A stretch of 64,000 nucleotides of DNA, taken from Candidatus Latescibacterota bacterium. Its GTDB lineage: Bacteria; Latescibacterota; UBA2968; UBA8231. The notes beneath the pieces are model-generated. The model was not told the DNA's origin and made no database searches. It saw only the letters and a program-made list of their open reading frames with translations. Position 1 is the stretch's first letter, and each line of letters opens with the position of its first letter. The DNA is taken from the NCBI GenBank assembly GCA_965217585.1, contig OZ244561.1, forward strand, positions 6,944,001-7,008,000, written 5' to 3'. The translations under genes and the position numbers were made by a program. Shown here piece by piece: positions 19,148 through 45,186 of this stretch.

Positions 19148-21817
19148 ATGAGACCGACACTCAAGGTATTTTGTGGTCTCCTCGTGGCTCTGGGGAACCT
19201 GGGCGGAGGGCCGGTGCTGGGACAGCCCGACTACGGCACGCGGTTGGGATTGGGCCAAGGCCTGGATCTCAGTTTTGAGCCCCAGGGCCCCGGGGTCATG
19301 CTGGGTGCTCTGGACCCGGCTGTGCGTCGCTGGTACGTGCCCCAGGAGCTTTTTGCGGAATACCAGTGGCGCCAGTGGGAGTACACCAACTATGCCCGCG
19401 ACCCGTACCAGCGCTATGTTAGCACCGCCCTAGAGGGTGATTACTTCTATGATATTTACGGCAATTTCCTAGCGCGCGGCTGGTTGATTTTCAACAACTC
19501 CCAGATCCGTCCCCAGCAGTTCGGGAATTCTCTCTTCAAAGCCACCCGCTTTGACCGGTGGTTCTCAGGGGTGGTGATAGCGGCCGATCACAAGGGCCAA
19601 TATTACTACACCATGACCCTGAGCAACCGGCTCCGCACCATCCTGACCCCCATGGTCTTTGCAAAACCGCGCATGGATGCGGTCCAGTTCGACTTGGCCA
19701 CGGACCGCTACGAAGCTACCCTGCTCTATTCGCGCGTCAGCAGTCCAGGTGGCGTCGATACCGACAACGAGGAACTCCTGCGGACCAACAATACTACCTT
19801 GGTGGGAGGACGCTTGGTCTTTCGAGTGGGGGACTTTGTAAAGGTAGGAGGGCACGTGGTTAATGCCCACCAATCCAATACCCTGTCGGACAAAATGGCG
19901 TGGAATCCCTTTACCGGCGGACTGACCGTGGACCAGAACCGCTCGATCAGTCGAATCCAACTGGTGCTGCGGGACGATTCGCCCGCAGATGGAAGAGGGG
20001 GAGCCGCCTTTTTTGCGGCCGGTTCGGACATCATCATCACCTACCGGGATGGCACAGTCGAAAAAGGCAAGGATATCCGCTTCAAACCCGTTGTAGAGGG
20101 AGGGTTTGTGCAGCAGGGTTTTATTGCGGCCGACGGCAACGAAGAGATCCGCCTACTCTACGACTTCGACAGCCCCGCCTTTCTGGACCGGACCAATTTT
20201 TCCAAAAGCGAAATCGCCGGGGTGGCGTTCCAGTTGCAGATGGGCAACGACTACCAGATCTGGATGACCTCAGACCGGCAGACGGACGACAACGGACAAC
20301 CGGTTCTCCTGCTGGTCGCCCGGGCCGAAGGCAATGTCCAGGATCTCACTAACCTGCAGACTGTGTACTTTGAAAGCGGCCTGCCCACGGCCACCCACAT
20401 TGCGGGGGGTAGCGTGGAAGTGCGCGACCTGCTGGGGTTCGACTTCTACGGCGAATACGACCTGAGCTGGAGCTTCCGCAAGTACCCCAATACCCTCGAA
20501 GAGACGCACAAGACCTCTGCGGGCATCAAAGGCAAGGAGAGCGCGCCAGCCTGGATGGTAAACCTATCTAAGAAGGCATATCCGTGGTTCGCATTCGGCG
20601 AGGTCTACAGCATGGATCCATTTTACAATACCCGAACCTTTGTCACCTCGGGCACGGGCGAGATCGACTACGCCAGCGAACGCCGGAGCGTGATGGAATT
20701 CGTCGAAGACAACGACGATCAGGACAGGATTCCGGATACCGTGCGCTTTGACTGGTTGGCCGGCGACAATACGGTCTTCCCCGGATGGGACCAAAACAAC
20801 GATTTCATCCCGGACTTCAACCAAAACGACAACTTTGAGCGCATAAACGCCGTGCCGGATTACGAAGAGCCCTTTTTTCGCTTCGGGGTAGACCGGCCCG
20901 AATTCCTCTTTGGCGTGGATCTGAATCACAATTTCTGGATTGACCAGTACGAAAACGACGAAGAGCCCGACTACCCCTATCGCAAGGATCACAGGGGGTT
21001 CAACCTCTACGGCGGGGCCCATATCACGCCCGGAGCAAAGCTGGTGATAGGGGCGCTGCGCGAGGAGTTGATCTCGGCGCACAAAAAGAACCACAGCACC
21101 TATGCCTTGCTGAGCCTCGAAGAAGACCTACCCCGCTATGGCCGCATACGGTTTTTCGAGATGATCCAGCGAGTCGAAGACGATATACCCAATCCGCTCC
21201 TGCAGTGGTCGCCGAACAACTCTCTGCAGGGTGGCGAACTCGTCAAGGTAGAGGATCCACTCCTGGCGCGGGACACTTGGGTGAATCACGTCTTCCTAGG
21301 GCACGTCCTGCAAGCGTCCTCTCTGTTTGCCATGAGCAAAATAAACTACGCGCTCTTCCTCCAGCGCACGAGCGAGAGCCAACGCCGGGAACTGGAACTG
21401 GACGCCGCGGATTTCTTCTTCGGGGCGATCAGCAAGGTGAGCTATCGCCATTCCCTGGGCTCCTTCATTTTTGAGCCGCGCTGGAAGAGTGAGTTCACCA
21501 AACAGACCCGCACTTTGTTCACCTTGGAAGAGCGCACCACCCTGAGCGAGTTGGTGGCGGGGCTAGTCGAAACCAATATCCTGCGGGCTACCCGGGTGCA
21601 GCTCGGGCTCGAATATCTGTTTTTTAACGATTTTGATGGAGATGTGCGGGATTTTAACTCGCTGACCTTGGCCCTGCAGTTCACCAATGAATCGAATTAC
21701 CTAGGTTACCGGCTGCGCGCCCTAGTGGGCACGGTGTTGGAACGAAAGGATTTCAAGGAGATGGAGTCCCGAACTACGAATCATTCGTTTATAACCATTT
21801 ATGCGGGTTTGGAATAG
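19148..21817 (+). CDS. Uncharacterised exported protein, putative outer-membrane beta-barrel (cassette family A, copy 1)
   Basis: Signal peptide followed by DYGTRLG, amphipathic beta-strands in the C-terminal part, acidic DNDDQDR/DQNND loops, and the ending FITIYAGLE. Two paralogs are in the window. Confidence 0.7.
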   Translation: MRPTLKVFCGLLVALGNLGGGPVLGQPDYGTRLGLGQGLDLSFEPQGPGVMLGALDPAVRRWYVPQELFAEYQWRQWEYTNYARDPYQRYVSTALEGDYFYDIYGNFLARGWLIFNNSQIRPQQFGNSLFKATRFDRWFSGVVIAADHKGQYYYTMTLSNRLRTILTPMVFAKPRMDAVQFDLATDRYEATLLYSRVSSPGGVDTDNEELLRTNNTTLVGGRLVFRVGDFVKVGGHVVNAHQSNTLSDKMAWNPFTGGLTVDQNRSISRIQLVLRDDSPADGRGGAAFFAAGSDIIITYRDGTVEKGKDIRFKPVVEGGFVQQGFIAADGNEEIRLLYDFDSPAFLDRTNFSKSEIAGVAFQLQMGNDYQIWMTSDRQTDDNGQPVLLLVARAEGNVQDLTNLQTVYFESGLPTATHIAGGSVEVRDLLGFDFYGEYDLSWSFRKYPNTLEETHKTSAGIKGKESAPAWMVNLSKKAYPWFAFGEVYSMDPFYNTRTFVTSGTGEIDYASERRSVMEFVEDNDDQDRIPDTVRFDWLAGDNTVFPGWDQNNDFIPDFNQNDNFERINAVPDYEEPFFRFGVDRPEFLFGVDLNHNFWIDQYENDEEPDYPYRKDHRGFNLYGGAHITPGAKLVIGALREELISAHKKNHSTYALLSLEEDLPRYGRIRFFEMIQRVEDDIPNPLLQWSPNNSLQGGELVKVEDPLLARDTWVNHVFLGHVLQASSLFAMSKINYALFLQRTSESQRRELELDAADFFFGAISKVSYRHSLGSFIFEPRWKSEFTKQTRTLFTLEERTTLSELVAGLVETNILRATRVQLGLEYLFFNDFDGDVRDFNSLTLALQFTNESNYLGYRLRALVGTVLERKDFKEMESRTTNHSFITIYAGLE

Positions 21818-21832
21818 ATTTGAGGCACAAAC

Positions 21833-23857
21833 TTGAATCCAAAAGGCAACGGAGGCAAACTTGCCTTGGAGGCCGCTGGTATTGGCCTACTGGCCCTATT
21901 TCTCCGGTTGGTCCACCTCCAGCAGCAGACCCAGAATCCTCTCTTCGAGGTGCCCGTGGCCGCGGCTCGGACCTTTGTAGCCCTGGCCCGGGAACTGCTG
22001 CGCCAGGGATCGTTGCCGCCGGATGCGCCGCCTTCCCTGTACCCCTTTTTTCTAGGGGGGCTCTTTTGGCTTTGCGGCGAAGCCTACGGGGCAGCCCGCT
22101 TGGTCCAGGCGCTGCTGGGAGCGGTCAACTGCGTGCTGTTGTGGCGCTTGGGATACGCGCTCTTTTCGTCGCGCCCCATAGCCCTTGGTACCGGGCTAGC
22201 AGCCGCTCTGTACGGGCCTTTGTTCTTCTTGGGCGGGTCTCTGCTGCCGCCCGTGCTAGCCGTTTTTTTTACTCTACTCTCCCTGCACGCCCTGCTGTGG
22301 GCCATGTCCGGAGAGTCGGTTTGGCGCTTCGGGATGCCGGGGCTGCTGCTGGGCCTAGCCGCTTTGAGCGGGGCTCACGTGCTGCTCTTTGCTCTAGGTG
22401 TCTTGCTCTGGCTCTGGTTGCCGGAAAGGAGGGGTTTGGGAGCTGGAGCCGGGCTGGTTCTGGGGCTGGCGGTGATCCTGCTGCCGGTTTTTCTGTGGAG
22501 CGGATGGGCGGGGGAAATGCTCTACCCTTCTTTCGGACTTGCGGCGCAAAACCTTTACCTTTTCTGGCAAGGGCAGGAGTTTTTGCCCGACCTGGATCCG
22601 TACTACGGACGCGAGTTTTCGGGGCTACTGGCCGCCTTGATGTGGAAAGGCTGGATAGGGTTCCCCTTTGGCCTTGTAGCCCCCTTGGCTCTGGTGGGCC
22701 TGGGCTTTCGACTCAGGTCGCCGGAACGCTCGCAGGCGGAAACCCCTATTCTCCTCTTTGTCGTCACTTGCTGTGTGGAAACCCTGTTTTTCGAGTGTAC
22801 CTCCGGCACCAGGGCAGTGCTGGTGCCGGGGTTCCTGCTCTTTGCCGCCGTCGGTATGGGGGAATGGAAGCGGGCCTCTTGGCCGCAGCGGGGCGCGGGC
22901 GCAGTTGCTCTGGTACTACTGGGCGTGGGACTAAACCGGGGTCAGATGGAAAAGACGGCGCAACCGCTCCAGCACCATTGGTTGGGGTACGCCTATGAAC
23001 AGCTAGATATGAAGGTCAATGCGGTCCGGGAGTACGAAAAAGCGATTTTCCTAGGAATAGAGCGCATGGACACTTATCTCGCCCTGGCCGGGCTCTACAG
23101 CGCCGGAGGGAAATACGATCGAGCCATCAGAGTGTACCGCGACCTGCTGCAGCGCTGGCCCGGAGAGTCCGCAGTGCGGCTGGCACTGGGGGACCACTAC
23201 GCGAAGGCGGGGCTCGCAGCCCAAGCCTCCACCGTGTATCGGGCGCTGCGGGAGGAGGGCGGCGATTCTGCGGTGTTGCTGCCGCGGCTGGCCCAGGCCC
23301 GTCTGGGCAGCCAGGATGCTCCGGGAGCCATTGAGGCCTACCGAGAATTGCTCAAAATCCAGCCGGAGAATGATCGGGTGCGCTTCCAACTGGGCATGCT
23401 CTACACCAAAGAAGGACGGATTCAGGAGGCCCAGGCGGCCTACCGTCCGCTGCTGCAGAATGCCGCCTGGGTGGCCGTAGCCGGTCCCCGCTTGGCGGAC
23501 CTACTGATGCGGACGCGGCAAGAGGCCGAGTCCGAGCAGGTGCTCATACAGACCTTGAGAGCTGCGCCCGACTCGGCACCGGCCCTAGCCCTGCTGGGCA
23601 AGTTGCTCTACGACCGGGGCCGCCACGAGGAATCCCTGCTGTATTTCGAACGCTTGCGTCCACTGCAGGCAGAGGATTTCCGCGTGTACTTTTATTTGAC
23701 CAAGCTCTACCAGGAGTTGGGCAGAGAGCGAGAAGCAGAGGAGGCCATGGACCTCTACCTCGAGTACCGTCGGCAAAAACACCGGGCGGATATTCAGCGA
23801 CACGCGCAAGAAGAAAGCGCCTTACTGCTAAAAAATATCTTAGGAGAAATCCATTGA
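21833..23857 (+). CDS. GT39/PMT-like (GT-C fold) membrane protein fused to C-terminal TPR repeats
   Basis: PSLYPFFLG..ARLVQALLG..AALYGPL pattern in a hydrophobic N-half, and a TPR-like C-half (LGYAY, LALAGLY, FQLGMLY, LLGKLLY). Confidence 0.65.
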   Translation: MNPKGNGGKLALEAAGIGLLALFLRLVHLQQQTQNPLFEVPVAAARTFVALARELLRQGSLPPDAPPSLYPFFLGGLFWLCGEAYGAARLVQALLGAVNCVLLWRLGYALFSSRPIALGTGLAAALYGPLFFLGGSLLPPVLAVFFTLLSLHALLWAMSGESVWRFGMPGLLLGLAALSGAHVLLFALGVLLWLWLPERRGLGAGAGLVLGLAVILLPVFLWSGWAGEMLYPSFGLAAQNLYLFWQGQEFLPDLDPYYGREFSGLLAALMWKGWIGFPFGLVAPLALVGLGFRLRSPERSQAETPILLFVVTCCVETLFFECTSGTRAVLVPGFLLFAAVGMGEWKRASWPQRGAGAVALVLLGVGLNRGQMEKTAQPLQHHWLGYAYEQLDMKVNAVREYEKAIFLGIERMDTYLALAGLYSAGGKYDRAIRVYRDLLQRWPGESAVRLALGDHYAKAGLAAQASTVYRALREEGGDSAVLLPRLAQARLGSQDAPGAIEAYRELLKIQPENDRVRFQLGMLYTKEGRIQEAQAAYRPLLQNAAWVAVAGPRLADLLMRTRQEAESEQVLIQTLRAAPDSAPALALLGKLLYDRGRHEESLLYFERLRPLQAEDFRVYFYLTKLYQELGREREAEEAMDLYLEYRRQKHRADIQRHAQEESALLLKNILGEIH

Positions 23858-25929
23858 AGAGGCGCGTACTATACTCGCTGGGAATGGCTGGGCTGCTTCT
23901 AGGATCGGATACCCTGGGCCTTGAGGTCCTGCGCTTTGGCCAGGGGGAACAGGTCACTTGGGAGGGGGAGATCTCGGGGGCCGAGGGCATTTCAATCATC
24001 GCACCGGAATACCGCACCGCGCTGGACCCGAATGTCACGGAAATTGGGGTTGCACCGGGCGACCTGATCGAGTTTGAAAATCCCGATTTCCCCAGGAGCA
24101 TCATGCCCCGCCGGGTCCAGAAGGAGCAAAATCTGGCCGTGGATGTGGTCGAGCGCGGCGGCAGCATCAGTGTCCCCAATGCGATCGACATTGTCAGGGT
24201 TCAGTTGGCGACTATCCTAGCGGGAGTCATTTCACCGGATCCCACGGGCAATGCCTTTGAGCGCAAGGGGAAGAAGATCTTGGGTACCCTGATCGTCTTG
24301 GATCTGGGGGCTCGGGTTGGGGTCAATCGGGTCCGCTTTTTCCCGCGCAACACCCTGTTCCCCTCCCCTACGACTCCCTTCCAAGACGACTTTCTAAAGA
24401 ATTTCGACCTCCTGGTCAACGACGGGCTGGTGCTGACCGATGCCGGTCTACCGATCTGGGAGACGTACCACAGCCGCCTCAATAATACCGAACCCATCAC
24501 AGTGATCGACGTCGATCCGCCGCGCTACCTCCGCTTTATCCGCCTGCGGGCTACCTCTGCGGTTCCCTTCGAGATTGAGAAGCTGCAGGTCTTTGGCGAA
24601 GGGTTTTTTCCCGCGGCCCAGTATCTCTCGCCCGTAATCGACATCGGCCTTCCGGCCAACTGGGGCCGGTTGCGCTGGGAACTGGAGGCCCTAGGCAATA
24701 AGAAAAAGGGGAATGTACAGATCCGCACCCGTACCGGTGCGGATGCGACCCCCTTTGTCTATAACCGCAAGCGAGTCGGCAAAGCCGATGCCGAGGAGAT
24801 TCCCTTTTCGGTAGATGATCCATCCGAACCGCTCTCCCGGCGAGACTTTCTGAAGCTGCGGCCCAAGGGCAACCCGGACGATGAATGGGAGCGTGGCTCG
24901 GTAGAGGAAGACTTGGAGAACTGGAGTCCGTGGACTCCACCCTATTCCATAGAGGCAGCCACTAGCGAGGAGGGCACGCGGATCCTTTCGCCCGGCCCCA
25001 AGCGCTATTTCCAGTTCCGCGCGGATTTTGTGAGCGAGGACCTGGAGTCGAGCTATGTGCTAAAAAATCTGTCCTTCGACTACACTACTCCGGCTCTGGC
25101 CGATGAACTGGTAGCCGAGATCTTCCCCCGAGAAGTGTCTGCAGCCACGGATATTTCCTTTGTGTACACCGTGCGCACATCAATGAACAGCGTCAATCTG
25201 CAGGGTTTCAACGGCCTAGAGATATTCACCCAAGGGCAGCCCGAGCGCATCGAGCGCATCGAGATCATCGACGGCAACAACCAGACCACAGTAGACCATA
25301 TCTTTGCAACCCAGGATGCGGTCACCGATGAAGGCGAGGTCGGCATCACCTCCTTTACCCACGAGGGATTCACCGTGCGTTTCCCTCACATACAGGAGGA
25401 CAATACCCTCCTGAAGATCTACTTTGTCAGCCGAATTTTGACCTACAGCAGTGCTTTTGCAGGACGAGCCTTGATCGTGGGAGGGGATACCTTTCAGAAT
25501 GTGGTCTCCGGCGACGCGGCCACCTTGGACGAGGCGGATTCTCCCTTTGATTCGGGAGTTGTGGTCCTGAGTCCAGCCGTAGCCAGAGCGGACCTGATCG
25601 GGGATTTCGACTTGGACGCTCCGCTACTAACCCCGAACGGCGATGGAGTGAATGACAGGTTAGAGCTGCGCTGTGAGGTCCTGACGGTGGTGGGCCAGGC
25701 CCACATCACCATAGAAGTCCTCGATCTCAGCGGCCGACGGGTGCGCTCCCTCTTCGACCACAAAGGAGAGAACGGGGTGTACGACAGGGCCCGTTTTGCT
25801 GAGTTGGGATGGGATGGCAGGGACGTGCAGGGTCATTTGGTGCCCCCCGGACTGTACCTGGTCCGGCTTGGGGTGGACGGCGATGCGCGCTCCAGTACTG
25901 CCTTGCGTACCCTAGGGATTACTTATTGA
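23854..25929 (+). CDS. Secreted protein with discoidin-like domain and FlgD-Ig/type-B CTD-like C-terminus (cassette family B, copy 1)
   Basis: Signal peptide, DLGARVGVNRVRFFPRN, WSPWT, SPGPKRYFQ, LTPNGDGVND and WDGRD..GHLVPPGLY. The start overlaps the upstream stop. Confidence 0.75.
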   Translation: MKRRVLYSLGMAGLLLGSDTLGLEVLRFGQGEQVTWEGEISGAEGISIIAPEYRTALDPNVTEIGVAPGDLIEFENPDFPRSIMPRRVQKEQNLAVDVVERGGSISVPNAIDIVRVQLATILAGVISPDPTGNAFERKGKKILGTLIVLDLGARVGVNRVRFFPRNTLFPSPTTPFQDDFLKNFDLLVNDGLVLTDAGLPIWETYHSRLNNTEPITVIDVDPPRYLRFIRLRATSAVPFEIEKLQVFGEGFFPAAQYLSPVIDIGLPANWGRLRWELEALGNKKKGNVQIRTRTGADATPFVYNRKRVGKADAEEIPFSVDDPSEPLSRRDFLKLRPKGNPDDEWERGSVEEDLENWSPWTPPYSIEAATSEEGTRILSPGPKRYFQFRADFVSEDLESSYVLKNLSFDYTTPALADELVAEIFPREVSAATDISFVYTVRTSMNSVNLQGFNGLEIFTQGQPERIERIEIIDGNNQTTVDHIFATQDAVTDEGEVGITSFTHEGFTVRFPHIQEDNTLLKIYFVSRILTYSSAFAGRALIVGGDTFQNVVSGDAATLDEADSPFDSGVVVLSPAVARADLIGDFDLDAPLLTPNGDGVNDRLELRCEVLTVVGQAHITIEVLDLSGRRVRSLFDHKGENGVYDRARFAELGWDGRDVQGHLVPPGLYLVRLGVDGDARSSTALRTLGITY

Positions 25930-25943
25930 GCAGGAAGACCGTT

Positions 25944-28634
25944 ATGGTATCTTCTGAGCACATAAAAATGGGCCTTCTATTACTCGTCGGCCTGTGGTGT
26001 CTGAGACCGGAGCCAGTGGTGGGCCAACCCGACTACGGCACCCGTCTAGGCTTGCAACAGGGGGGCCAGTGGCGCCACTTGCCACAGGGAAGCAGACCTA
26101 TGCTGGAGGTGGTGGATCCGCTAATCCGCAAGTGGTACTTGCCCCAGGAATTGTACGCGGAATACCGCTGGCGGCAGTGGGAGTCCACCAATTACGCCCG
26201 GGAATTCTACGGTCGCTATGTCGAAACCGATCTGGCAGGGGATTACTTCTACGATTTATACGGCAATTTTCTGACCCAGGGGTGGCTGATCTTCAACGCC
26301 GGCCAGACCAGCCCCGCAGAAAATGGCCATGTGCTGTTCAAGGGCCAGAAGTTCAGCGAGTGGTTTTCCGATGTGGTCATCGCCTCCGAACAAAAGGGCC
26401 AGTATCACTATGCCCTGACCGCGAGCAATGATCTGCGCATCATCTTCACTCCCCTGGTCCTGTCCAAAATCCGGTTCTCGGCGATCCAGTTCGACGCCTC
26501 GACGGACAAGTACAAGACCACGCTGTTCTATTCCCAAGGTGCGCTGCGCGGGAGGACGGATACCGAGCGGCTCCGCACCAATTCCACCACCTTGATGGGA
26601 GGACGTCTCGTCGCCCAGGTGGGGGATTTCACGGAAATAGGATTCCACCTAGTCAATGCCCACCAGTCCAACAGTCTGGACGGCAAGCTGGTGAGCAACC
26701 TCGTGGCGGGCTCCCTGACAGAGGGGCAGAACAAGGTGATTTCCTCCATCGAAATCGAGTTGCGGGACGATTCGCCCGCAGACGGCAGGGGTGGGGCGGC
26801 CTTTTTCCCGGCCGGTTCGGACATTTTCATAACCTATCGGGACGGCACTCAGGATGCGGGCAAGGACATCCGCTTTGAGCCGATCGTGGAAGGTGGGTTG
26901 GCCCGGGAAGGCTCGATTTCCGCCAACGGCGACGATACAATCCGCCTGATCTACGACTTTACCAGCCCGGCCTTTGTCAACCGGGCCCACGCCGACCGAT
27001 CCGAAATCGTCGCGGTCGAGTTCCAGCTAGCCCTGGCCAACGATTTTCAGGTCTGGATTAGTTCGGATCGGCAAACCGACAGGGTGGGCACCCCGGTGTT
27101 CCTGCTAGTGGAACGAGCCGAGGGCAATGTCCAGGACAAATCCAACCTGCGCCTCGTCAACTTTGAATACGGTCTGCCCACCGCCACCCACCTTCTCGGC
27201 GGGACCCTGAAAGTGCAGGATGTGTGGGGTATCGATCTGTATGGAGAGTACGACCTGAACTGGAACTACCGCAAGTACCCCAATCCGCAGGAAGAGACGC
27301 ACAAGACCTCTGCGGGTATCAGAGGCAAGCGCAAAGTACCAGCCTGGATGTTGAATTTGTCCAAAGAGGCCTATCCATTCTCTTTTTTTGCGGAACTCTA
27401 CAACATAGATCCCCTCTACGGTACCCAGACCTTCATCACTGCGAGCGACGGCACCATGGACTATGCCAACGAGCGCCGGCGCCTAGACCTGGTGGAGGAC
27501 AATGACGACCAAGATCGCTTCCCCGATACACCCCGCTTTGACACAGCACTTATCGCCCAAGCGGGAGAACGTCAGACCGTGGATCTCCAGGTATTCCCCG
27601 GCTGGGACAGGAACGGCGATTTCCTCCCGGATTTCAATCAGAACGACAGCAAACTCAAGCCCAATTCCATTCCCGACTATGATGAACCCTTTCTGCGCTT
27701 TCGGGTAGATCGGCCGGAGTTCCTCTTCGGGGTGGACATGAACCACAATTTCTGGGCCGATCTCTACGAGAACGACACCGTGCCCGACTATCCCTACCGC
27801 GTGGATCACCGCGGCTTCAACCTCTTTGGCGGGGTCCACCTGACGCCGCAACTGGAACTGAAGATAGGAGGCATGCGCGAGCAGTTGATCGCCTCGGAAC
27901 AGAAGAATTACAGCAACTATGGCCTACTGAAATTCGCTGGCAAATCACCGCGCTGGGGCTATTTGCGCCTCTTCGAGATGATGCAGTGGGTAGAAGATGA
28001 TATCCCCGATCCGCTGTTGCAGTGGGCCCCGGACAATACCGTGGATGGCGGGCGTCTGCAAGAGCTGGAAGATCCGCTTCTAGCGCGGGATACTTGGATC
28101 AACCAGTTCTTCGTTGGGTACAGCCTGAAGGTCGAGGCCCTAGAACTAGTGAACAAGGTACATTACGTATACTTCCGCCAGTTGATGGAGCAAAGCCGGC
28201 GCTTGCGCTTCGGGTTGGACAAGTCGGACTTTTTCTTTGGCCTGATCAACAAGGCGAGTTACCGCTACCGCCTGGGGCACCTGACCCTAGAACCGCGCTG
28301 GAAGAGCGAGTACCTAGACCAGAGCCGCAACCTGTTTGATGCCCGAGATCAAAAGACCCTCACCGAGCTGTTTTCCGGTCTGGTCGAGATGAGGCTGATG
28401 CACGCCTCTTCCCTGCAGATGGGGATCGAGTACCTGCTCTCCACGGATTTCCACGGCCGGGAGCGAGATTTCACCACCCTGAGCGGGGGGGTGCAGTTCG
28501 CCAATGAATCCAGCTACCTAGGCTACGTACTCAAAACCCTGACCGGGTTCGTGATAGAGCGCAAAGATCCCAAAGGACGAGATCCCACCACCGCGGTCCA
28601 GTCCTTTATCACCGTGTATGCAGGCATGGAGTAA
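25944..28634 (+). CDS. Putative outer-membrane beta-barrel (cassette family A, copy 2)
   Basis: Collinear paralog of 19148-21817 (DYGTRLG, WYLPQELY, LRDDSPADGRGGAAFF, EPRWKSE), ending FITVYAGME. Confidence 0.7.
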   Translation: MVSSEHIKMGLLLLVGLWCLRPEPVVGQPDYGTRLGLQQGGQWRHLPQGSRPMLEVVDPLIRKWYLPQELYAEYRWRQWESTNYAREFYGRYVETDLAGDYFYDLYGNFLTQGWLIFNAGQTSPAENGHVLFKGQKFSEWFSDVVIASEQKGQYHYALTASNDLRIIFTPLVLSKIRFSAIQFDASTDKYKTTLFYSQGALRGRTDTERLRTNSTTLMGGRLVAQVGDFTEIGFHLVNAHQSNSLDGKLVSNLVAGSLTEGQNKVISSIEIELRDDSPADGRGGAAFFPAGSDIFITYRDGTQDAGKDIRFEPIVEGGLAREGSISANGDDTIRLIYDFTSPAFVNRAHADRSEIVAVEFQLALANDFQVWISSDRQTDRVGTPVFLLVERAEGNVQDKSNLRLVNFEYGLPTATHLLGGTLKVQDVWGIDLYGEYDLNWNYRKYPNPQEETHKTSAGIRGKRKVPAWMLNLSKEAYPFSFFAELYNIDPLYGTQTFITASDGTMDYANERRRLDLVEDNDDQDRFPDTPRFDTALIAQAGERQTVDLQVFPGWDRNGDFLPDFNQNDSKLKPNSIPDYDEPFLRFRVDRPEFLFGVDMNHNFWADLYENDTVPDYPYRVDHRGFNLFGGVHLTPQLELKIGGMREQLIASEQKNYSNYGLLKFAGKSPRWGYLRLFEMMQWVEDDIPDPLLQWAPDNTVDGGRLQELEDPLLARDTWINQFFVGYSLKVEALELVNKVHYVYFRQLMEQSRRLRFGLDKSDFFFGLINKASYRYRLGHLTLEPRWKSEYLDQSRNLFDARDQKTLTELFSGLVEMRLMHASSLQMGIEYLLSTDFHGRERDFTTLSGGVQFANESSYLGYVLKTLTGFVIERKDPKGRDPTTAVQSFITVYAGME

Positions 28635-34961: not shown

Positions 34962-34996
34962 ACGGGGCAGGCCCGCCGGGTCTGCCCCGTTTTTTT
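34962..34996 (+). terminator. Rho-independent terminator
   Basis: ACGGGGCAGGCCC-GCC-GGGTCTGCCCCGT followed by a T run. Confidence 0.85.
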
Positions 34997-37615: not shown

Positions 37616-37642
37616 AATGCCGCAATCTCGCCTTTTCCGAGT

Positions 37643-39625
37643 TCAGTTCAGGACGCCGCACAATTCGATCATAGCCACGACCCCGCGCGGCACGAACTCT
37701 CCTAAGATCAGCCCTAGGAAAAAGGGGCGCAGCCGCTGGAACAACCTAGGACCTCCGAACCTCAGGACCATGCTTTTGATCGCCCAGGCTAGCAACACGC
37801 TGAAGAACATCTTGTTTGCAGCCATGCTTATGGGAAAACTAATCGGGTGAAAGGGCCACCAGATAAAACGCTGTTGGGCCAGCATGAACAGCGCCATCAA
37901 AACGCCGCCTATGGCGGTATAACCCCAGTACTCCCAGCGCGGTCCCTGGGGAGAAGCTATGCGGGTGGCTGCATTGTCGAAGGGCCATTGCGATTGTCCC
38001 CAGAAGAAATGGGAGGTATTGAGGCCACCGTGCACATAAGCTAGGTCCAGCATCATCCAGATCGAACTGCAGAAGGTGACCACAATTGCCACCAACATGC
38101 TCCAGAAGATCAGCCGCCGATTCTTTTTTACAGTCTCCTCGATTACCTTGAGGCCATTGGCACAGGAGGTCATCGTGAAAATGATGATGTCACTGGCCCA
38201 GACGTAGGTAAAGGCCAAGGCGATGATTCCGCTGGACCCCAGAGCCCGGGTGCCAAAACTGCCGACGATCACGTCCGAAGCGATGATCGGCGCAAAGAGG
38301 TAGGGGAATCCACCTTCGGCGATGATCCGCGTGATCCCCACAAAGAGCACAAAGGCGAAAAAGAGGAAGCACGGGGTAATCCAAGCCGGCAACCCCGACT
38401 GCCATAACCATAGACCCATAAAGGTCAGGCAGCCCAACAAGGTAAAGACCGCAGCCCGATAGGAGAGAATCTCGCCGGAATCGTCGATGGATGTCTCCTG
38501 TCCCACGGCCTTGCGCAAAACCTGCCGCAAGTGGCCGCGGGCATTCCACAGCCCAAAGAGCACTAGGACCGTAAAAGCGCCCAATCCCTGGTGGGACAAA
38601 ATGGGGTCGCCTCTCATCCAGTGACTGAGCATAGGATCGTGATACCCACCTCCCAAAAGGGCGAACGCGATCTCCTGCAGGACGTTGAGCAAAAAGAAGA
38701 AGCACAATCCGAGGGAGACCTCCCGGCGGATGAAATAGGTAAACCCGAGCATCATAAAGCTCACGCCGATCCTGACCCCGACCAGATCCCGGAAAAGATA
38801 GATGTATTCACCGCTTGTATTGATGTAGGGCATAAAGGGATAATAACGCGTCAATAGGTTGTGAAAATTGATGATAAAGGGGATGGCAAAGCCCAACCAC
38901 ATCAGCCAGTCCTTGAAAAAAGGATTGATCAAGGAAGGACGGTCGCCATCTCGGAGCATGGCAATGGGCAACTGGGTCATGGGAAAGACGAGGCGTTCGC
39001 TAGTGATCCACTGTTTCCGCAGAATGGCCATGATGCAGATCATGGACACGAAAAGCGACAGGGCAAAGGGCAGCCAGTGGAGTAAGGGAGGAAGCCAGAG
39101 TCTCCAGGGTACGCCCTGTCCTTTGGGGGCACCTTCGTAAAAGTTTCTGATCTGGGCCAATTCCCTATGGGGAATGATCCACTCCGGGATGTAGGGCAAT
39201 AGGCTCTCGCGCCAGTTGTTTTCCGGCGAGGCGTAGTAAATCACACTGGTGACTTTCGGCAGGAAGTAGGAGACGAACCCATCCGTGGTGACGCCTGAGC
39301 CCACGATCCACATGACGTAGATCTGGGCCAATTCGGCTGGGCTCAACATCCACCGGCGGCGGATCAACCCCACCAGGGGGTTGAGGAAGAGCACCAAGAC
39401 GAAAAACATGATCACGGGGCCCGGGGTGAAGAACCAGTTGCCGAACCCGGATGTCTTCAGTATCATGTCGGAGTACTGGAAACCAGCGCCGACCACCAGA
39501 CAACCTACCGCGCCGATGAGCAGGGCGCGAAAGCTGGGTACCCACGCAGAGGACGGGATCACGGTGCCTCTCCAGGTGCAGTGTATTTGGCTGCTGCGGA
39601 TCGAATATAGGCAAGATTCGAGCAT
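37643..39625 (-). CDS. DUF6785/DUF6784-type polytopic membrane protein
   Basis: YYASPENNW, RKQWITSERLVFP, WWPFHP and RFGGPRLF..PFFLGLILG. The exact start is uncertain. Confidence 0.75.
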   Translation of the reverse strand: MLESCLYSIRSSQIHCTWRGTVIPSSAWVPSFRALLIGAVGCLVVGAGFQYSDMILKTSGFGNWFFTPGPVIMFFVLVLFLNPLVGLIRRRWMLSPAELAQIYVMWIVGSGVTTDGFVSYFLPKVTSVIYYASPENNWRESLLPYIPEWIIPHRELAQIRNFYEGAPKGQGVPWRLWLPPLLHWLPFALSLFVSMICIMAILRKQWITSERLVFPMTQLPIAMLRDGDRPSLINPFFKDWLMWLGFAIPFIINFHNLLTRYYPFMPYINTSGEYIYLFRDLVGVRIGVSFMMLGFTYFIRREVSLGLCFFFLLNVLQEIAFALLGGGYHDPMLSHWMRGDPILSHQGLGAFTVLVLFGLWNARGHLRQVLRKAVGQETSIDDSGEILSYRAAVFTLLGCLTFMGLWLWQSGLPAWITPCFLFFAFVLFVGITRIIAEGGFPYLFAPIIASDVIVGSFGTRALGSSGIIALAFTYVWASDIIIFTMTSCANGLKVIEETVKKNRRLIFWSMLVAIVVTFCSSIWMMLDLAYVHGGLNTSHFFWGQSQWPFDNAATRIASPQGPRWEYWGYTAIGGVLMALFMLAQQRFIWWPFHPISFPISMAANKMFFSVLLAWAIKSMVLRFGGPRLFQRLRPFFLGLILGEFVPRGVVAMIELCGVLN

Positions 39626-39647
39626 TGGCCGAATATTTATTGAGGGC
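39133..39647. repeat. 515-bp near-identical direct repeat, copy 1 (copy 2 at 57231-57745)
   Basis: Both copies run from CTTCGTAAAAG to TATTGAGGGC. Three substitutions were found by eye. Confidence 0.9.
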
Positions 39648-39884
39648 CATGGCTGCTGACCGCACCCGGCCGCTTTGATACCTTTCAGCTCAAGGGGATT
39701 GGGGCCAGAGGGGGTGTGAATAGATGAACCTTAGCGGAGTTTTCTGTTCCAATGATTGGAACCCCGCGTAGGGAAGAAAACGACCGACCTTAAGGAACTG
39801 TGTGGCTCGGATCGTTGTTTTTGGTTCCGTTGCTATCGTATCCCCAACCTGCACAACTGGATGAAGAAGCGGGGAATCAAGAAA

Positions 39885-40038
39885 ACGCCGGGCACCATCT
39901 GTTTCGACTTAGCCGTATCGAACACCTTGCCGAGCTTCGACGTCCACAACTCTTCCATGGTCCTGTCGTTGTGATCGCTACCCGCGGAAATAAAGATTTC
40001 CCCCTGGTGCACCACGGCGACAAACTCCACTTCAAATT
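39885..40038 (-). pseudogene. Internal fragment of a DUF2848-like (FAH-fold related) gene
   Basis: Translates as EFEVEFVAVVHQGEIFISAGSDHNDR...SKQMVP, resembling the EVEFV/GSDHxDR/SKQ signature. It has no start of its own. Confidence 0.55.
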
Positions 40039-42027
40039 CTAATACATCTGGATCGTATTGCCTGTCATCCCAGTGAACCCATCTACGACCAGCCAGAACC
40101 CGCCTACCACGAATTGCCCCAAAATCATTCCTAGAAAAAACCAGCGCGTGGCACCGTAGCCGGCCGGGCCGGTAAATCTCAGAATAAGGGCCTTGACCAA
40201 CCAGGCTAAAAAGATGCTGAACCAGACACTGTTCAGGATCCACGTGCCGCTCACCACATAACCGATCGGGTGCAAGGGCCACCACAAAAGGTGTTGTCGC
40301 GCTAAGGTCAGCAAGGCCATGACTACAGCCCCGGCTCCGGTCCACCCCCACCCGGGCCAGTAAGGTCCGACCGGCGTCTCGATCAGGCGGCTGGCAACCA
40401 GGAAGGGCTCCTGGGCAAACCCGGAGAAATATTGTTGATGGAGGTTGATGGCGCCGTACTGGTAGCCCAATTTCAGGGTTGCGCAGATCGATACTACCAG
40501 GCCGATGCCCAAGGCCACTACCATCATCCCTAAGAGCCGCATACTGGAACCCCGCAAGCCGTGCAGCATGCGGATGCCGTTGGCACAAGGGGCCATCATA
40601 AAGACCAGAAGATCCGCAGCCCAGGCCAAGGTGTACTCCACTGCTATCGTGCCGACCGGCCCCAGAGCAGACGAGCCCACGCCGGACACCAGAAAACCCG
40701 CGCCCGATAACCCTTGTACAGCCGACGAGAGGCCGGCTTCGACGATCACCCGGGTAAGCGCCAAAAAGATGGTAAAGACGCCGAAGAGGAACACCAAGAC
40801 CGCCCAGCCCGGCATCCCGCTTCTCCCCAGCCAGAGTCCCATGATCCCCAACCCGACCACTAGGCCGATCACCGCGGTCCGGTAGGAGATCAACTCGTCC
40901 TCATCGGATTCTACTCCCCGACCCCAGACCTGCCTCCACACCTCCCACAGGTGGGACCGAGCTGTCCACAATCCCAGTAGCACCAAGACGATCATAGCAC
41001 CCATGCTCTGGTGGCTCAGCATGCCTCTCGTGGACCCTGTATGGCTGAACAAGTCGAGCTGTTCGGCACTGTAAATGCCCAGGATAGAGCAAACCGCCTC
41101 TTGGAGCTTGGCTAGCAAGAGAAAGAACCACAGGCTGAAGGAGATGCTGGTGTTGATGAAATAGGCCAGTCCCATCATCAGGTAGTTGAGCCGGATGGGA
41201 ATCGAGACCGCACCGCGGGCTACCAATAACTCGTAGTTTATATCGACTGCCGGCACAAATTCATAATAGCGGCTGAGCGCGAGGACGCTATTCAAGAGAA
41301 ACGGGATCGCAAAACCGACCCACATCACCGGATTCTTCAGGAAGGGCTTGACGCGCGAAGGCGGATCCTGGTCTTCGATCATGCCCAAAGGCACCTGGAC
41401 CAGCGGATACAGCAGCCGTTCGTGCTCCATCCACTGCCGGCGCAAAATGACCATCGAACAGATCAGCACCGTGTAGAAGCCACCCATGAACAGGAGCCAC
41501 CAGCTCAGAGGCTGGACCCAAGCTTCCCAGGGAACAGGCTGCCCCTGGGGCAGGCCTTCGTAAAACCACTTTACCGCTTCCTGATCCTGAGGGACCATCC
41601 AGGTGGAGATGTAGGGAATCAACTGCTCCGCCCAGTTGTTCTCCGGCGAGGCGTAGTAGAATACACCGGAGATGATGGCCAAGACCATGCCGGTAAATCC
41701 CCTGGAGGAGATCGCCGTGGCCAGCATCATCATCACGGTTATGAGGAGCAGTTCGCCGCGGGTAAAAAGCCACGACCGCCGCATCGCCCCCAACAGCGGC
41801 TGTACGAGAACCATCAACACGAACAACAGGAAGAAGGCCGCCGGGGTAGAAGAACTCAACCCCAACCGGGTCCCCTGAATGACGAACTCTCCATAGGGCA
41901 GCCCAGCGGCAATCAAGCCGCAAAGTAGCATCCCTGCCAGCATCGCGCGGAGACGAATCTTAGACGGGGTGACTTCTTCGCGTCCAGGCGGAGACTCAGC
42001 TTGAGTCTCTGGTTTCGCGAAATCCAT
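40039..42027 (-). CDS. DUF6785/DUF6784-type polytopic membrane protein
   Basis: YYASPENNW, RRQWMEHERLLYPL, WWPLHPIG and FFLGMILG. Confidence 0.75.
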   Translation of the reverse strand: MDFAKPETQAESPPGREEVTPSKIRLRAMLAGMLLCGLIAAGLPYGEFVIQGTRLGLSSSTPAAFFLLFVLMVLVQPLLGAMRRSWLFTRGELLLITVMMMLATAISSRGFTGMVLAIISGVFYYASPENNWAEQLIPYISTWMVPQDQEAVKWFYEGLPQGQPVPWEAWVQPLSWWLLFMGGFYTVLICSMVILRRQWMEHERLLYPLVQVPLGMIEDQDPPSRVKPFLKNPVMWVGFAIPFLLNSVLALSRYYEFVPAVDINYELLVARGAVSIPIRLNYLMMGLAYFINTSISFSLWFFLLLAKLQEAVCSILGIYSAEQLDLFSHTGSTRGMLSHQSMGAMIVLVLLGLWTARSHLWEVWRQVWGRGVESDEDELISYRTAVIGLVVGLGIMGLWLGRSGMPGWAVLVFLFGVFTIFLALTRVIVEAGLSSAVQGLSGAGFLVSGVGSSALGPVGTIAVEYTLAWAADLLVFMMAPCANGIRMLHGLRGSSMRLLGMMVVALGIGLVVSICATLKLGYQYGAINLHQQYFSGFAQEPFLVASRLIETPVGPYWPGWGWTGAGAVVMALLTLARQHLLWWPLHPIGYVVSGTWILNSVWFSIFLAWLVKALILRFTGPAGYGATRWFFLGMILGQFVVGGFWLVVDGFTGMTGNTIQMY

Positions 42028-42031
42028 ACGG

Positions 42032-42420
42032 TTAAGGGCGAAAGCGTATAGAGTATAGGTCGGCGTCTTTCATCACAAAGCGGATGCGGACCGGCTGGCC
42101 GACAAGAGCCCCCACATCAGCGCTGGCTGAACCATACTGTGGCTCCGCATGCCAGGCGACGACGCGCTCAATTTCCATCTCCATAGATCTCGACGCTCTC
42201 GGACAAGTGGTCTCCATCCAGCGGCTGTCCCGTGGCATCCTGTATTTCCACGCGCAGGCTGCCCACCGCAGAGGTCGAGTGGTTGAGGACCAACTATGTA
42301 CCGAGCAGAATCCGTCCGTCCGCAACGTGGCTCTCCGCAACCGTATCGATGGATGCCTGTAGTGCTCTATGTAGTAGAGCGAAAGCTCGGTGGGGCTCCA
42401 CCGAAGGAAAGTATCGGACC
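42032..42420 (-). pseudogene. Frameshifted 3' remnant of a beta-propeller glycosidase-like hypothetical gene
   Basis: The blocks ELSLYY..RRATLRTDGFCSV, GSLRVEIQDATGQP (another frame) and IERVVAW..DVGALVGQPVRIRFVMKDADLYSIRF are collinear pieces of one C-terminal domain. Confidence 0.6.
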
Positions 42421-42510
42421 GGTCGCCCTGAGCAAACCGCCGTTGCAGTCCCAGGGCCAGAACAGCCACCTGCACCGGTTTTGTCACCGCGTCCTATCTC
42501 AACTCTGATA

Positions 42511-45186
42511 TTACTTATCCAGGCCGGCGTACATGGTGATGAATCCCTGGGTGGTAGTATCGGTTCCCTGTTCTTCGAAGTCTTTTCTATCGACCTTCAT
42601 ACCCACTTGGGTCGTGAATGAATAGCCTAAATACTCGCTTACATTCGCAAGCTGCATGGCCACGGCCAGGCCGTTGAAATTATTTGCTTTCTCGCGAAAA
42701 TCGTTGGAAAAGGTGTACTCGATGCCCGACTGTATCTCAGTATGCCTGAGTACCGGGAACCCGAGCAGGAACCCGAAGAGCTCTGTCAGAATATTCTCTT
42801 TCCCCACGGCGAACAACCCAAAGGTCTGCAGACGAAACTCGCTCTTCCATCGCGGTTCTAACCAGAAACGCCCGAGCCTATGGCGATAGTTGGCCTTGTT
42901 GATGACTCCAAAAAAATAGTCGTTGGCGTGCTCCAGACTGTAGGTCTCTCGCTTTTCCGCATCGTCGCGTTGATGGTAGTGCTCGAACTTGACATGGTTG
43001 GACAACTGCAACACCCCGTGAGTATAATCGTGGCCGAGCCAGGTCGCAGTGATCCAGGTATTCCGGGCCAGGAGAGGATCTTCCACCTTTTTCTGCTGCG
43101 CATCCCTCAAGGTGACCTCAGGGAACCACTGGAGCAGATCGTTCGGGATGTCATCTCTGGCTAATTTCACCATTTCTAAAACCCGAAACCGACCGAACTT
43201 GGGGGTATCCTGGTCCAAGGTAAACAGGGCGTAGGAGGTGTGATTGCGCTGGTCGGAGGAGATCAGATCCTCTCGCAGGTGTCCCACCGTAAACCGGACG
43301 CGGGGGGTCAAGTGGTAACCGAAATAGACATTGAAACCACGGTGGTCCTTGGGGTAGGGATAGTCCGGCTCCTCGTCGTTCTCGAACCGGTCTACCCAGA
43401 GATTGTTGTTCATGTCGACCCCGAACAGAAACTCAGGGCGATCCACATTGTGTCTCAGGAAGGCCTCTTCATAGTCTGGGACATCATTGGTACGGAAAAG
43501 GTTATCATTCTGGTTGAAGTCGGGGATGAAGTCGTTGTTCTCATCCCATCCAGGGAAGACCCTGGAGTCTCCTTGGCGCCAGTCGGCGCGAATCGCGTCG
43601 GGGAAGCGGTCCTGGTCGTCATTATCGTCGACCAGTTCCACGATGTTCTGGCGTTCGTCCTCATAGTCGATGAACCCATCCCCCAACGTGACGAAGGACC
43701 GCGTGCTGTAGAGCGGATCCATGCTATAGGCCTCGCTGAAGAAGAACCAAGGATAGGCGATCCTGGAGAGGTTGAGCATCCAAGCCTCATCCGTCCGATT
43801 CCCCGAAACTCCCGAGGAGGTCGAGTGAGTCTTGCGGGTGACATTGGGATACTTCCGGTAGATCAGGCCCAGGTCGTACTCGCCGTAGAAATCAAAGCCC
43901 CACACATTCTGCAACTCTATCGTGCCGCCGACGATCTGATGCGCCGTTGGCAGGCCGTATTCGAACTTGAGGACCCTCAGGTTGGTATTGTCCTGGACGT
44001 TCCCAGCAGCCTGGGAAACCAGCAGCAGAACCGAGTTGTCGTTGGAATTGAGCTGACGGTCGGAGGTCATCCAGATCTGGTAGTCGTTTCCCACGGTCAT
44101 GCTGAACTCCACCTTCATGATCTCCTCCTTGCTCCCGCTGGCCCGATTCACGAAGGCGGGGGTGTCGAAGTCGTAGCGGATCCGGATCTCCTCGGTACCG
44201 TCGGCCGCAAGGAACCCCTCCTGCACGAAACCTCCCTGGATGACTGGCTTGAAGCGGATGTCTTTTCCCTTGTCGGTCTTCCCATTCGTGTAGGTGATGA
44301 AAATATCCAGGCCTGCCGGGAAGAACGCCGCACCACCCGTCCCATCATCCGGGGAATCGTCCCTGAGCACGAGCTCAATGAAGGAGATAGTGGAATTCTG
44401 ACTGATCGTCAGAGCGCCCGCTATCGGGTTGCCCTTGAACCCGCTTACCAAGGTGTTGGACTGGTGAGTGTTGACGAAGTGCAGCCCTAAGGTGGTGAAA
44501 TCCCCGACCTGAGCCGTTGCGCGCCCCCCCATCAGCGTGGTGAGATTGGTTCTAAGTTGTTCTAGATCGTTTGTCGAGCCCCCTCCGGGACTGCTGATGC
44601 GCGAGAAGATCAGGGTCCCCTGGTACTTGTCCGTGGCGAAGTCGAACTGGATCCCATCCCAGCGTGGCTTCGAGAAGCTCATAGGGGTCAGGGTTGTACG
44701 GAGTTCGTCTCCTACAGTCAGAGAGTAATGGTACTGGCCCTTCTGGTCGGAGGCGATGGCCACCTTTGAGAACCACTGCTCGAACCTCCTCGCCTTTATC
44801 AGAGAATTCCCGAACTGGAGAGGTTGTATCTGAGAGTTGGTAAAGATCAACCAGCCGCGAGTGACAAAATTGCCAAACAGATCGTAGAAGTAGTCGCCTT
44901 CCAGGTCTATATTGACATATCTTTGGTAGTGTTGTCTGGCATAATTGCTGTATTCCCATTGCTTCCACCGATACTCATTGTAGAGTTCCTGAGGGACGTA
45001 CCACTTCTTGACTGCCGGGTCCAGGGCGTCGAACAGGACGCCCGGCCCATAAGGGGCGAAACTGACTGCCCCGCCTCGCTGCACCCCTAGCCGCGTTCCA
45101 TAGTCCTGAGCCAGAGAGGGCCCCAGAGTGGCAATCAAAACCAAGACAACCGCAACGGGTGCAATATATCTTTTCCTGCGTTTCAT
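42511..45186 (-). CDS. Putative outer-membrane beta-barrel (cassette family A, copy 3)
   Basis: Signal peptide, DYGTRLG, WYVPQELY, LRDDSPDDGTGGAAFF, DNDDQDRFPD and EPRWKSE, ending FITMYAGLDK. RBS GGAGG. Confidence 0.7.
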   Translation of the reverse strand: MKRRKRYIAPVAVVLVLIATLGPSLAQDYGTRLGVQRGGAVSFAPYGPGVLFDALDPAVKKWYVPQELYNEYRWKQWEYSNYARQHYQRYVNIDLEGDYFYDLFGNFVTRGWLIFTNSQIQPLQFGNSLIKARRFEQWFSKVAIASDQKGQYHYSLTVGDELRTTLTPMSFSKPRWDGIQFDFATDKYQGTLIFSRISSPGGGSTNDLEQLRTNLTTLMGGRATAQVGDFTTLGLHFVNTHQSNTLVSGFKGNPIAGALTISQNSTISFIELVLRDDSPDDGTGGAAFFPAGLDIFITYTNGKTDKGKDIRFKPVIQGGFVQEGFLAADGTEEIRIRYDFDTPAFVNRASGSKEEIMKVEFSMTVGNDYQIWMTSDRQLNSNDNSVLLLVSQAAGNVQDNTNLRVLKFEYGLPTAHQIVGGTIELQNVWGFDFYGEYDLGLIYRKYPNVTRKTHSTSSGVSGNRTDEAWMLNLSRIAYPWFFFSEAYSMDPLYSTRSFVTLGDGFIDYEDERQNIVELVDDNDDQDRFPDAIRADWRQGDSRVFPGWDENNDFIPDFNQNDNLFRTNDVPDYEEAFLRHNVDRPEFLFGVDMNNNLWVDRFENDEEPDYPYPKDHRGFNVYFGYHLTPRVRFTVGHLREDLISSDQRNHTSYALFTLDQDTPKFGRFRVLEMVKLARDDIPNDLLQWFPEVTLRDAQQKKVEDPLLARNTWITATWLGHDYTHGVLQLSNHVKFEHYHQRDDAEKRETYSLEHANDYFFGVINKANYRHRLGRFWLEPRWKSEFRLQTFGLFAVGKENILTELFGFLLGFPVLRHTEIQSGIEYTFSNDFREKANNFNGLAVAMQLANVSEYLGYSFTTQVGMKVDRKDFEEQGTDTTTQGFITMYAGLDK

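Follow-up and report, generated by a model that had tools for sequence, protein, structure and literature searches.

Three paralogous genes for large outer-membrane proteins

The DNA considered here is a window of 64,000 nt from contig OZ244561.1 of a Candidatus Latescibacterota bacterium, and all positions given below are counted from the first nucleotide of this window. It contains two operons on opposite strands, which between them encode three copies of a large protein, here called family A, predicted to form a wide β-barrel in the outer membrane. The order of the genes around it suggests, tentatively, that this barrel serves as the partner of secreted proteins encoded in the same operons. 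The three genes are as follows, the names of the two subfamilies referring to their usual positions among the neighbouring genes B, C, E and T described below:

19148..21817, + strand: A1, predicted family A outer-membrane barrel, 889 amino acids (aa), 'B-A-T' subfamily
25944..28634, + strand: A2, predicted family A barrel, 896 aa, 'C-A-E' subfamily
42511..45186, - strand: A3, predicted family A barrel, 891 aa, 'B-A-T' subfamily

A preliminary description of this DNA had reported three paralogs of some 890 aa at these coordinates and had quoted several motifs as common to them. Both statements are borne out: the reading frames give stop-free translations, pairwise identities by BLASTP are 58.3%, 58.6% and 51.9% over about 880 aa (E = 0), the mean column identity of a three-way alignment is 74%, and each motif is found in all three translations. 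These motifs are DYGTRLG, immediately after a Sec-type signal peptide; an aromatic block WY[VL]PQELxxEYxWxQWExxNYAR; the sequence LRDDSPxDGxGGAAFF; the acidic motifs DNDDQDR[IF]PD, WDxNxDF[IL]PDFNQND and GVDxNxNxWxDxxEND; and the C-terminal FITxYAG[LM][ED]. In a nucleotide comparison the three genes gave no mutual match at E < 1e-20, which indicates that the duplication is old. The longest open reading frame (ORF) for A2 begins at 25809, and 25944 is preferred as its start, which is sensible because the upstream gene stops at 25929.

Predicted fold of the family A proteins

The architecture of family A was modelled with AlphaFold 2 (AF2) from an alignment of 61 sequences reaching about 25% identity, in a second run that supersedes an earlier one based on a shallow alignment (predicted local distance difference test score, pLDDT, 68.6). 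The resulting model has a pLDDT of 83.9 and a predicted TM-score (pTM) of 0.81, with pLDDT below 50 only in residues 1-6 and 17-91. DSSP assigns to it 23 long antiparallel strands. A small β unit (residues 98-131) precedes six long strands (142-244); a β-sandwich insert (245-403), whose short strands occupy 269-392 at a pLDDT near 90, is followed by four strands (404-489), an Asp/Asn-rich module (490-614) and a final run of thirteen strands (615-887). Mapped onto A1, the principal features are:

19148..19225, + strand: signal peptide, aa 1-26, cut predicted before Gln from sequence and hydrophobicity
19226..19423, + strand: N-terminal extension, aa 27-92, comprising DYGTRLG, a linker and the aromatic block WYxPQEL...NYAR; conserved, modelled as disordered
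19880..20356, + strand: β-sandwich insert, aa 245-403, starting near LRDDSP, between strands 6 and 7 (AF2 and DSSP)
20615..20989, + strand: insert rich in Asp and Asn that joins strands 10 and 11, aa 490-614, a putative cluster of Ca2+ sites
21788..21814, + strand: C-terminal strand FITIYAGLE, β-signal-like (modelled strand 875-887)

Turns of 2-6 residues alternate with every long connection in the model, and if loop parity is counted back from a periplasmic C-terminus both inserts would be either external or luminal. A 24th strand may be contributed by the N-terminal unit, or alternatively the N-terminus may thread through the lumen. The only hydrophobic 19-mer of A1 covers residues 7-25, and the family A proteins contain no other hydrophobic helix. 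At the C-terminus of the window copies FITxYAG[LM] is extended by E or by DK, one or two residues; a canonical aromatic β-signal (...VVVGF, ...IIAGW, ...VLAGF or ...VIVGY) closes the sequence of many distant members.

A Foldseek search of the model against the PDB listed MtrB, SlpA, LptD, the ushers FimD and PapC, TonB-dependent transporters, porins and a chain of the chloroplast TOC-TIC complex. With the single exception of 8fjp_A (prob 0.09), the matches listed are all membrane β-barrels, with TM-scores no higher than 0.37. The top match is MtrB (6r2q_B; E = 1.3e-8, query TM-score 0.27, target TM-score 0.34); SlpA chains occupy ranks 2-4 (about 1e-7, TM-score 0.16-0.20), and LptD comes after these. 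Because these matches are to membrane barrels, and all at low TM-score, the fold class appears secure, yet no solved barrel is closely related. Structure prediction with Foldseek, one of the checks that the preliminary description had proposed, gave a barrel model and matches to outer-membrane barrels, none of them close.

Scans of A1, A2 and A3 against Pfam-A and NCBIfam returned no family at E≤1, so that family A is without a curated model in either collection; among the domains absent at this threshold are those of ushers, LptD, Omp85 and SprA, barrels to which any Foldseek likeness is generic (TM-scores up to 0.26), as well as Plug (PF07715) and TonB_dep_Rec (PF00593). A search of PDB sequences with the family A profiles of A2 and A3 produced chance-level matches alone (E at least 0.045). 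In keeping with the earlier remark that no SusC motif is evident, neither collection gives a SusC or TonB-dependent receptor domain. The DYGxRLG motif and disordered linker at the mature N-terminus, which are lost in distant members, are unlike the TonB-box consensus. The nearest named cluster in the ESM Atlas is DUF6029, a 'TonB-dependent-receptor-like barrel' (0.89), which is to be taken as a lead only.

Taken with the signal peptide, the model makes it well supported that family A is a Sec-exported outer-membrane β-barrel of about 23-24 strands, presumably inserted by the β-barrel assembly machinery. The preliminary description had gone further in proposing a new class of barrel. The outer-membrane barrel (AF2 model, Foldseek matches, signal peptide) and the lack of any assigned family both stand, but 'new class' is too strong a term, given the distant matches to the SlpA_C family (PF21620) set out below.

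The predicted signal-peptidase site of family A is followed by Gln, as in ...LG/QPDYG and ...LA/QDYG (the slash marking the cut), and in 45 of 56 close relatives Gln precedes [DE]YG by no more than two residues. The B proteins have the consensus ...AQ/xGY at their predicted cleavage site. An N-terminal Gln after cleavage resembles the 'Q-rule' of secreted proteins in Bacteroidota.

A conserved acidic module

The clustering of acidic loops noted in the preliminary description is real. In A1, Asp, Glu and Asn together make up 34% of region 490-614. The core motif [DN]x[DN]x[DN] occurs 4-6 times in the acidic region, as against once across the other 765 or so residues, and the extended motif [DN]x[DN]x[DN]xxx[DE] is present in 4, 3 and 3 copies, compared with means of 0.43, 0.30 and 0.76 in composition-matched shuffles; these counts were reached in 5, 9 and 88 of 2000 shuffles, respectively. 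A1 has three loops of the form [DN]x[DN]x[DN]xxxD, at 522, 548 and 591, and the last of these (D591-N593-N595-W597-D599-E602) has the 1-3-5-7-9-12 spacing that is typical of EF-hand-type calcium loops. A likeness to thrombospondin type-3 repeats, also suggested previously, extends to the [DN]x[DN]x[DN]xxxD spacing but not to the family model, TSP_3 (PF02412) having no match at E≤1.

Modelled without regular structure (pLDDT 64-92), this module is the best conserved part of the superfamily, at 2.35 bits. In a diverse alignment the invariant and nearly invariant columns are concentrated in it (D521, N522, D523, D524, D526, D530, D548, D552, D556, N560, D571, D591, N593, N595, D599, E602, D604 and D608). 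The module is probably Ca2+-binding. Elsewhere, N81 is at least 90% conserved across the same diverse alignment, and within the close family the aromatic block reaches 3.5 bits despite its modelled disorder. Conservation in the close family is likewise higher in the inserts and in the aromatic N-terminal block than along the barrel strands, a pattern that suggests structural or protein-contact roles for them rather than those of variable substrate loops.

Distribution and subfamilies

The preliminary description had framed this locus in terms of Bacteroidota, which is close but wrong: the host belongs to Latescibacterota, in the Fibrobacterota-Chlorobiota-Bacteroidota (FCB) group. Among the candidates scored, 635 proteins match family A at E≤1e-3, all of them annotated 'hypothetical', and the 120 relatives listed contain no Pfam domain. 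There are at least 739 representative clusters at E≤1e-3, 202 of them at E≤1e-30, and GTDB species genomes contain no fewer than 634 confirmed loci, several per genome. Multiple loci per source are already evident among the best 80 matches (at least 5 in OZ220690.1, 6 in the RKRN01 metagenome-assembled genome (MAG) and 5 in JAJEIO01). No fused or longer forms of A were found, which is weak evidence.

The named sources are Candidatus Latescibacteria or Latescibacterota, with some MAGs labelled Gemmatimonadetes or Woeseia. Such labels, including Gemmatimonadota, are attached to loci L009, L013, L032, L056, L072 and others, whose A proteins lie at branch lengths of about 0.005-0.02 from those of Latescibacterota. 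The labels are doubtful because the proteins are almost identical in the tree, and these bins are probably mislabelled, or the contigs mis-binned.

A FastTree phylogeny of 98 A proteins resolves two old subfamilies that track position in the operon. A1 and A3 belong to the B-A-T subfamily, and A2 to the C-A-E subfamily, a clade of 42 rows with support of 100. A more distant subfamily (P0246), with members of about 980 aa, matches A3 (P0003) at E = 1.3e-42, and at least 13 distinct clusters of this type are present on a single contig of 5.87 Mb. It is here that a connection to SlpA appears: sub-threshold matches to PF21620, at E between 2e-7 and 0.06, are given by 15 of 38 distant members, and the family is precomputed for 41 of the 120 P0246 relatives listed, the match in these relatives spanning only about 75 of the 656 profile positions. 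PF21620 has no match in A1, A2 or A3 at E≤1.

Organisation of the operons

Operon 1, on the + strand, is tightly packed and comprises P, A1, T, D1, A2, B1, C1 and E1. Operon 2, on the - strand, comprises E2, C2, D2, B2, A3, an ORF of 151 aa, two copies of X, a tetratricopeptide repeat (TPR) protein and an FG-GAP/UnbV_ASPIC protein. Several of the products carry a C-terminal domain (CTD) of the kind associated with type IX secretion (the system being abbreviated T9SS). Genes and features other than family A are:

17217..18971, + strand: P, periplasmic PpiC-type peptidyl-prolyl isomerase (SurA/PpiD-like), opening operon 1 (Pfam Rotamase, Rotamase_2 and Rotamase_3)
21833..23857, + strand: T, inner-membrane protein with a GT-C-like (PMT_2) domain (27.1 bits), about 8 transmembrane helices and C-terminal TPR (many TPR families)
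23854..25929, + strand: D1, secreted, 691 aa, T9SS-type CTD (CHU_C/FlgD_ig, E about 1e-3), 45% identical to D2
28641..31772, + strand: B1, secreted, 1043 aa, F5/8-type-C (discoidin) domain and T9SS type-B-like CTD (PNPFTPNGDGVND ... AVAY), from domain scans
31785..33851, + strand: C1, secreted, 688 aa, CHU_C/FlgD_ig CTD (CHU_C 35 bits, cutoff 27)
33983..34930, + strand: E1, secreted, 315 aa, with the conserved C-terminus ...AVExxSWGRIKAQF
34962..34990, + strand: intrinsic-terminator-like hairpin closing operon 1 (13-bp stem with 10 GC pairs, T run)
34998..42487, - strand: 151-aa ORF, two X (DUF6785+DUF6784), TPR protein and FG-GAP/UnbV_ASPIC protein, downstream of A3 (Pfam)
45340..48792, - strand: B2, immediately upstream of A3 and 37% identical to its paralog B1; ORF start probably too far upstream
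48672..50792, - strand: D2, CTD protein (FlgD_ig 44 bits, CHU_C 32 bits)
50844..53234, - strand: C2, CTD protein (CHU_C 45.5 bits)
53105..54064, - strand: E2, paralog of E1 (35% identity by sequence comparison), ending ...TWARIKSQFK

To see how far this arrangement is conserved, 73 related loci were compared, many of them interrupted by contig ends. T and C are each found in 64 of these; B, like D, is found in 63, P in 48, E in 48-49, and X in 20, where it lies just upstream of P. Most often the genes run (X) P B A T D C A E, with variable flanks beyond. Of the 95 A genes in the related loci, 82 are immediately preceded by B, C or D. Within the window this holds for A2, behind D1, and for A3, behind B2, while A1 comes after P. 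Across 22 representative flank families there is no conserved glycoside hydrolase or other catabolic enzyme, and neither these families nor the 37 ORFs of the window include a PorP_SprF domain.

The CTDs of B, C and D, which combine CHU_C/FlgD_ig with an FTPNGDGxND motif, are on these grounds assigned as T9SS type-B-like. CHU_C (PF13585) exceeds its 27-bit cutoff in C1, C2, B2 and D2, and is present in all ten C orthologs examined, just as discoidin is present in all eleven B orthologs; CBM9_1 is matched weakly in 2 of 14 E orthologs. Searches of PDB sequences with B, E and X found either FlgD Ig-like domains, at the CTD, or nothing, and a search of the ESM Atlas with B returned only its own family.

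For P, translation probably begins further downstream than the ORF start; the protein has one hydrophobic segment (aa 41-59) and matches the NCBIfam models for PpiD, PrsA and EpsD below threshold. All 22 orthologs of T contain TPR, and 13 contain PMT_2 (seven above cutoff); the two short forms among them have TPR only. PDB sequence searches with T found TPR proteins only. Short T proteins (311-355 aa) occur in loci L012, L013, L016, L018-L023, L025, L029 and L036, the two scanned having TPR without PMT_2, which implies that the GT-C part is dispensable there or is encoded elsewhere. X has 9-11 hydrophobic segments.

In the E family (about 300 aa) the motif [ST]AVExxSWGxIKxx[FY] lies within a few residues of the C-terminus in all 37 proteins examined. 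No Pfam or NCBIfam model matches it, and it could be an unrecognised signal for sorting or for strand donation.

Other features of the window

Five genes for DUF6785 proteins (some with DUF6784) lie on the - strand within the 64 kb, at 3600-5567, 37643-39625, 40039-42027, 57112-57723 and 62430-63992. They are 39-74% mutually identical, with 9-11 hydrophobic segments each, and two of them adjoin FG-GAP/UnbV_ASPIC genes (5564-7390 and 34998-36689). A direct repeat of 515 bp, with 99.4% identity, occupies 39133-39647 and 57231-57745. The first copy takes in the 5' end of one DUF6785 gene (37643-39625, -), and the second heads the truncated ORF of 203 aa at 57112-57723 (-). Over its first 164 aa this ORF shares 99% identity with the full gene, and a partial duplication or a rearrangement, in either case recent, is suggested.

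Tandem paralogs at 7-1245 and 1274-2779 (+) have C-terminal AhpC-TSA/thioredoxin-like domains and are 74% identical as proteins and 82% as DNA. Divergent GFO_IDH_MocA paralogs at 13099-14247 (-) and 15909-17102 (+), with 53% aa identity and an inverted DNA match of 304 bp at 74.7%, lie on either side of a GHL10-like gene (14359-15900). Scanning the window for Rfam families and for tRNA genes gave no hits.

A proposed role as partner of secreted proteins

The arrangement in which genes for type-B substrates are followed by cognate porP/sprF-like genes is described in PMC12618676, and according to PMC9143113 PorP-like barrels bind type-B CTD proteins and the TPR-containing protein PorE. Family A recalls this system in three respects: the barrel gene is directly downstream of a gene for a type-B-like CTD protein; several cognate copies are present per genome; and there is an associated TPR protein, PorE for PorP and T for A. 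The two also differ. PorP/SprF (PF11751) has no match in A at E≤1, and the A proteins, at about 890 aa, have large conserved inserts and an acidic metal-type module that PorP/SprF lack. T, moreover, is an inner-membrane GT-C/TPR protein, whereas PorE is an OmpA-domain lipoprotein.

On the strength of the conserved gene order and the analogy with PorP/SprF, we tentatively favour, as plausible rather than probable, the reading that A is the cognate outer-membrane partner that receives and holds B, C and D at the cell surface. In Latescibacterota, A would then be the core, within the membrane, of a conserved envelope module of several proteins. B, C and D would be exported first, then received by A and kept on the surface, and A would do the job of the small PorP/SprF barrels, while being unrelated to them and about three times larger. 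PorP/SprF proteins are of about 300 aa. The inserts would most likely fill or cap the wide barrel. P might escort either the barrel or its cargo across the periplasm; the N-terminal block of A, being very aromatic, would be well matched to a SurA-type chaperone. T might modify or scaffold the barrel or cargo, acting as an inner-membrane glycosyltransferase or scaffold. That A binds B, C, D, T, P or E at all is something we infer.

Several observations weigh against this proposal. Operons with a single A gene, including operon 2 of the window, keep B, C and D, so that any pairing of A with cargo is not one-to-one. Just three positions cleanly separate the B-A-T and C-A-E subfamilies, with no clear specificity patch, which gives scant indication of surfaces specific to a cargo. 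In sequence A is not similar to PorP/SprF, and it is far bigger than an anchor would seem to need to be. The CTDs of the window score 23-27 bits against TIGR04131, the NCBIfam type-B model, under its cutoff of 35. DSSP counts an odd number of strands, and the N-terminal 115 residues may run by more than one path in the predicted model. Lastly, an uptake system would account just as well for the many copies per genome and for the discoidin and CBM9-like domains.

It is tempting to extend the proposal to a trans-envelope machine for surface display, in which a giant barrel in two forms (B-A-T and C-A-E) replaces PorP/SprF; T, through its TPR, or P grips the disordered aromatic N-terminus of A in the periplasm; and E contributes its invariant C-terminal strand (...SWGxIKxxF), either as an insertion into the barrel, whose strand number appears odd, or to complete it. 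The divergent copies would then be a repertoire of substrate-binding complexes, a T9SS-based counterpart of SusCD loci. This fuller scheme is doubtful.

Alternative roles

The main rival to a partner role is uptake, in a system resembling a polysaccharide utilisation locus (PUL), and the two are compatible in so far as an import channel could also anchor B, C and D. A would be a wide passive or gated channel, the functional analogue of SusC, with B-E as surface substrate-binding proteins delivered by the T9SS and X as an inner-membrane importer. Like SusC, A is a large barrel encoded in multi-copy loci together with surface proteins of carbohydrate-binding type, and the many paralogous operons per genome, the invariable discoidin of B and weak CBM9_1 of E, the polytopic X upstream of P or, in the window, downstream of A3, and the nearby FG-GAP/UnbV_ASPIC genes would all be in keeping with import. 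A nevertheless has no detectable plug or TonB-dependent receptor domain and no evident TonB box; its operon has no SusD, and its companions are T9SS-CTD proteins rather than lipoproteins. The flanks conserve no carbohydrate-active enzyme and no catabolic enzyme of another kind, X is missing from most loci, and the predicted external inserts surpass the strands in conservation, the opposite of what is usual for substrate-specific loops. On balance uptake is possible but unlikely.

A scaffold of the kind formed by SlpA and a dedicated secretion pore are both less likely than either the partner or the uptake reading. As a divergent giant barrel of SlpA/OmpM type, A would be an abundant, metal-stabilised mount for a surface layer of B, C and D. 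SlpA (PF21620; 8ae1, 8agd, 7zgx), from Deinococcus-Thermus, is also a giant single-chain barrel with lumen or loop insertions, and provides the best-ranked Foldseek matches after MtrB, besides the weak profile matches of distant A relatives. In PMC9388160 it is described as a 30-stranded barrel in which lumen insertions are stabilised by Asp metal sites, and is proposed as a scaffold and possible S-layer anchor. The corresponding Asp sites of A are putative. No protein of the window matches PF21620 at E≤1, however, and in the relatives the match is confined to a short part of the profile. SlpA has an SLH domain and a trimeric coiled-coil stalk; A has no SLH match and no long helix beyond the signal peptide, and its 23-24 predicted strands compare with 28-30 in SlpA, at low TM-scores. 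A, for its part, lies in multi-copy operons with T9SS-type cargo, and divergent operons in many copies would be unexpected for a single housekeeping scaffold, which makes this role improbable. A translocon or usher that exports B, C and D independently of SprA/Sov is very unlikely indeed: the barrel is wide, FimD and PapC are among the Foldseek matches, the β-sandwich insert follows strand 6, as the plug domain of ushers does, and the operon encodes a dedicated periplasmic chaperone, P; but the recognisable T9SS-type CTDs of B, C and D argue for export by the T9SS, A has no usher domain and matches ushers at TM-scores of only 0.19-0.26, and loop parity in the model would put the insert outside rather than in the periplasm.

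MtrB (6r2q_B) and LptD (8h1s, 4q35) are wide barrels that enclose a partner, and as in A the lumen needs filling. They have no sequence similarity to A, and the low TM-scores indicate a generic barrel likeness. The A genes lie in neither a cytochrome nor an Lpt context, and A appears to carry its own inserts in place of a separate plug.

Significance

Family A is a new large family of outer-membrane barrels, at most distantly tied to SlpA_C, and its operon is not described in the literature searched. No paper in it names the phylum together with type IX secretion, and DUF6785 is mentioned in none; one paper, unrelated to the present subject, brings the phylum name together with outer membrane proteins and polysaccharide. 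Latescibacterota are not known to have a cultured representative. The family A operon is among the most repeated operons of Latescibacterota genomes. If A partners the CTD proteins, the anchoring of T9SS cargo would not depend on the PorP/SprF fold, and a second solution would have evolved independently. If instead A is an uptake pore, the operon would represent a non-TonB, T9SS-decorated analogue of a PUL in an abundant phylum of sediment and soil. Under either reading, family A merits a family model and a structure.

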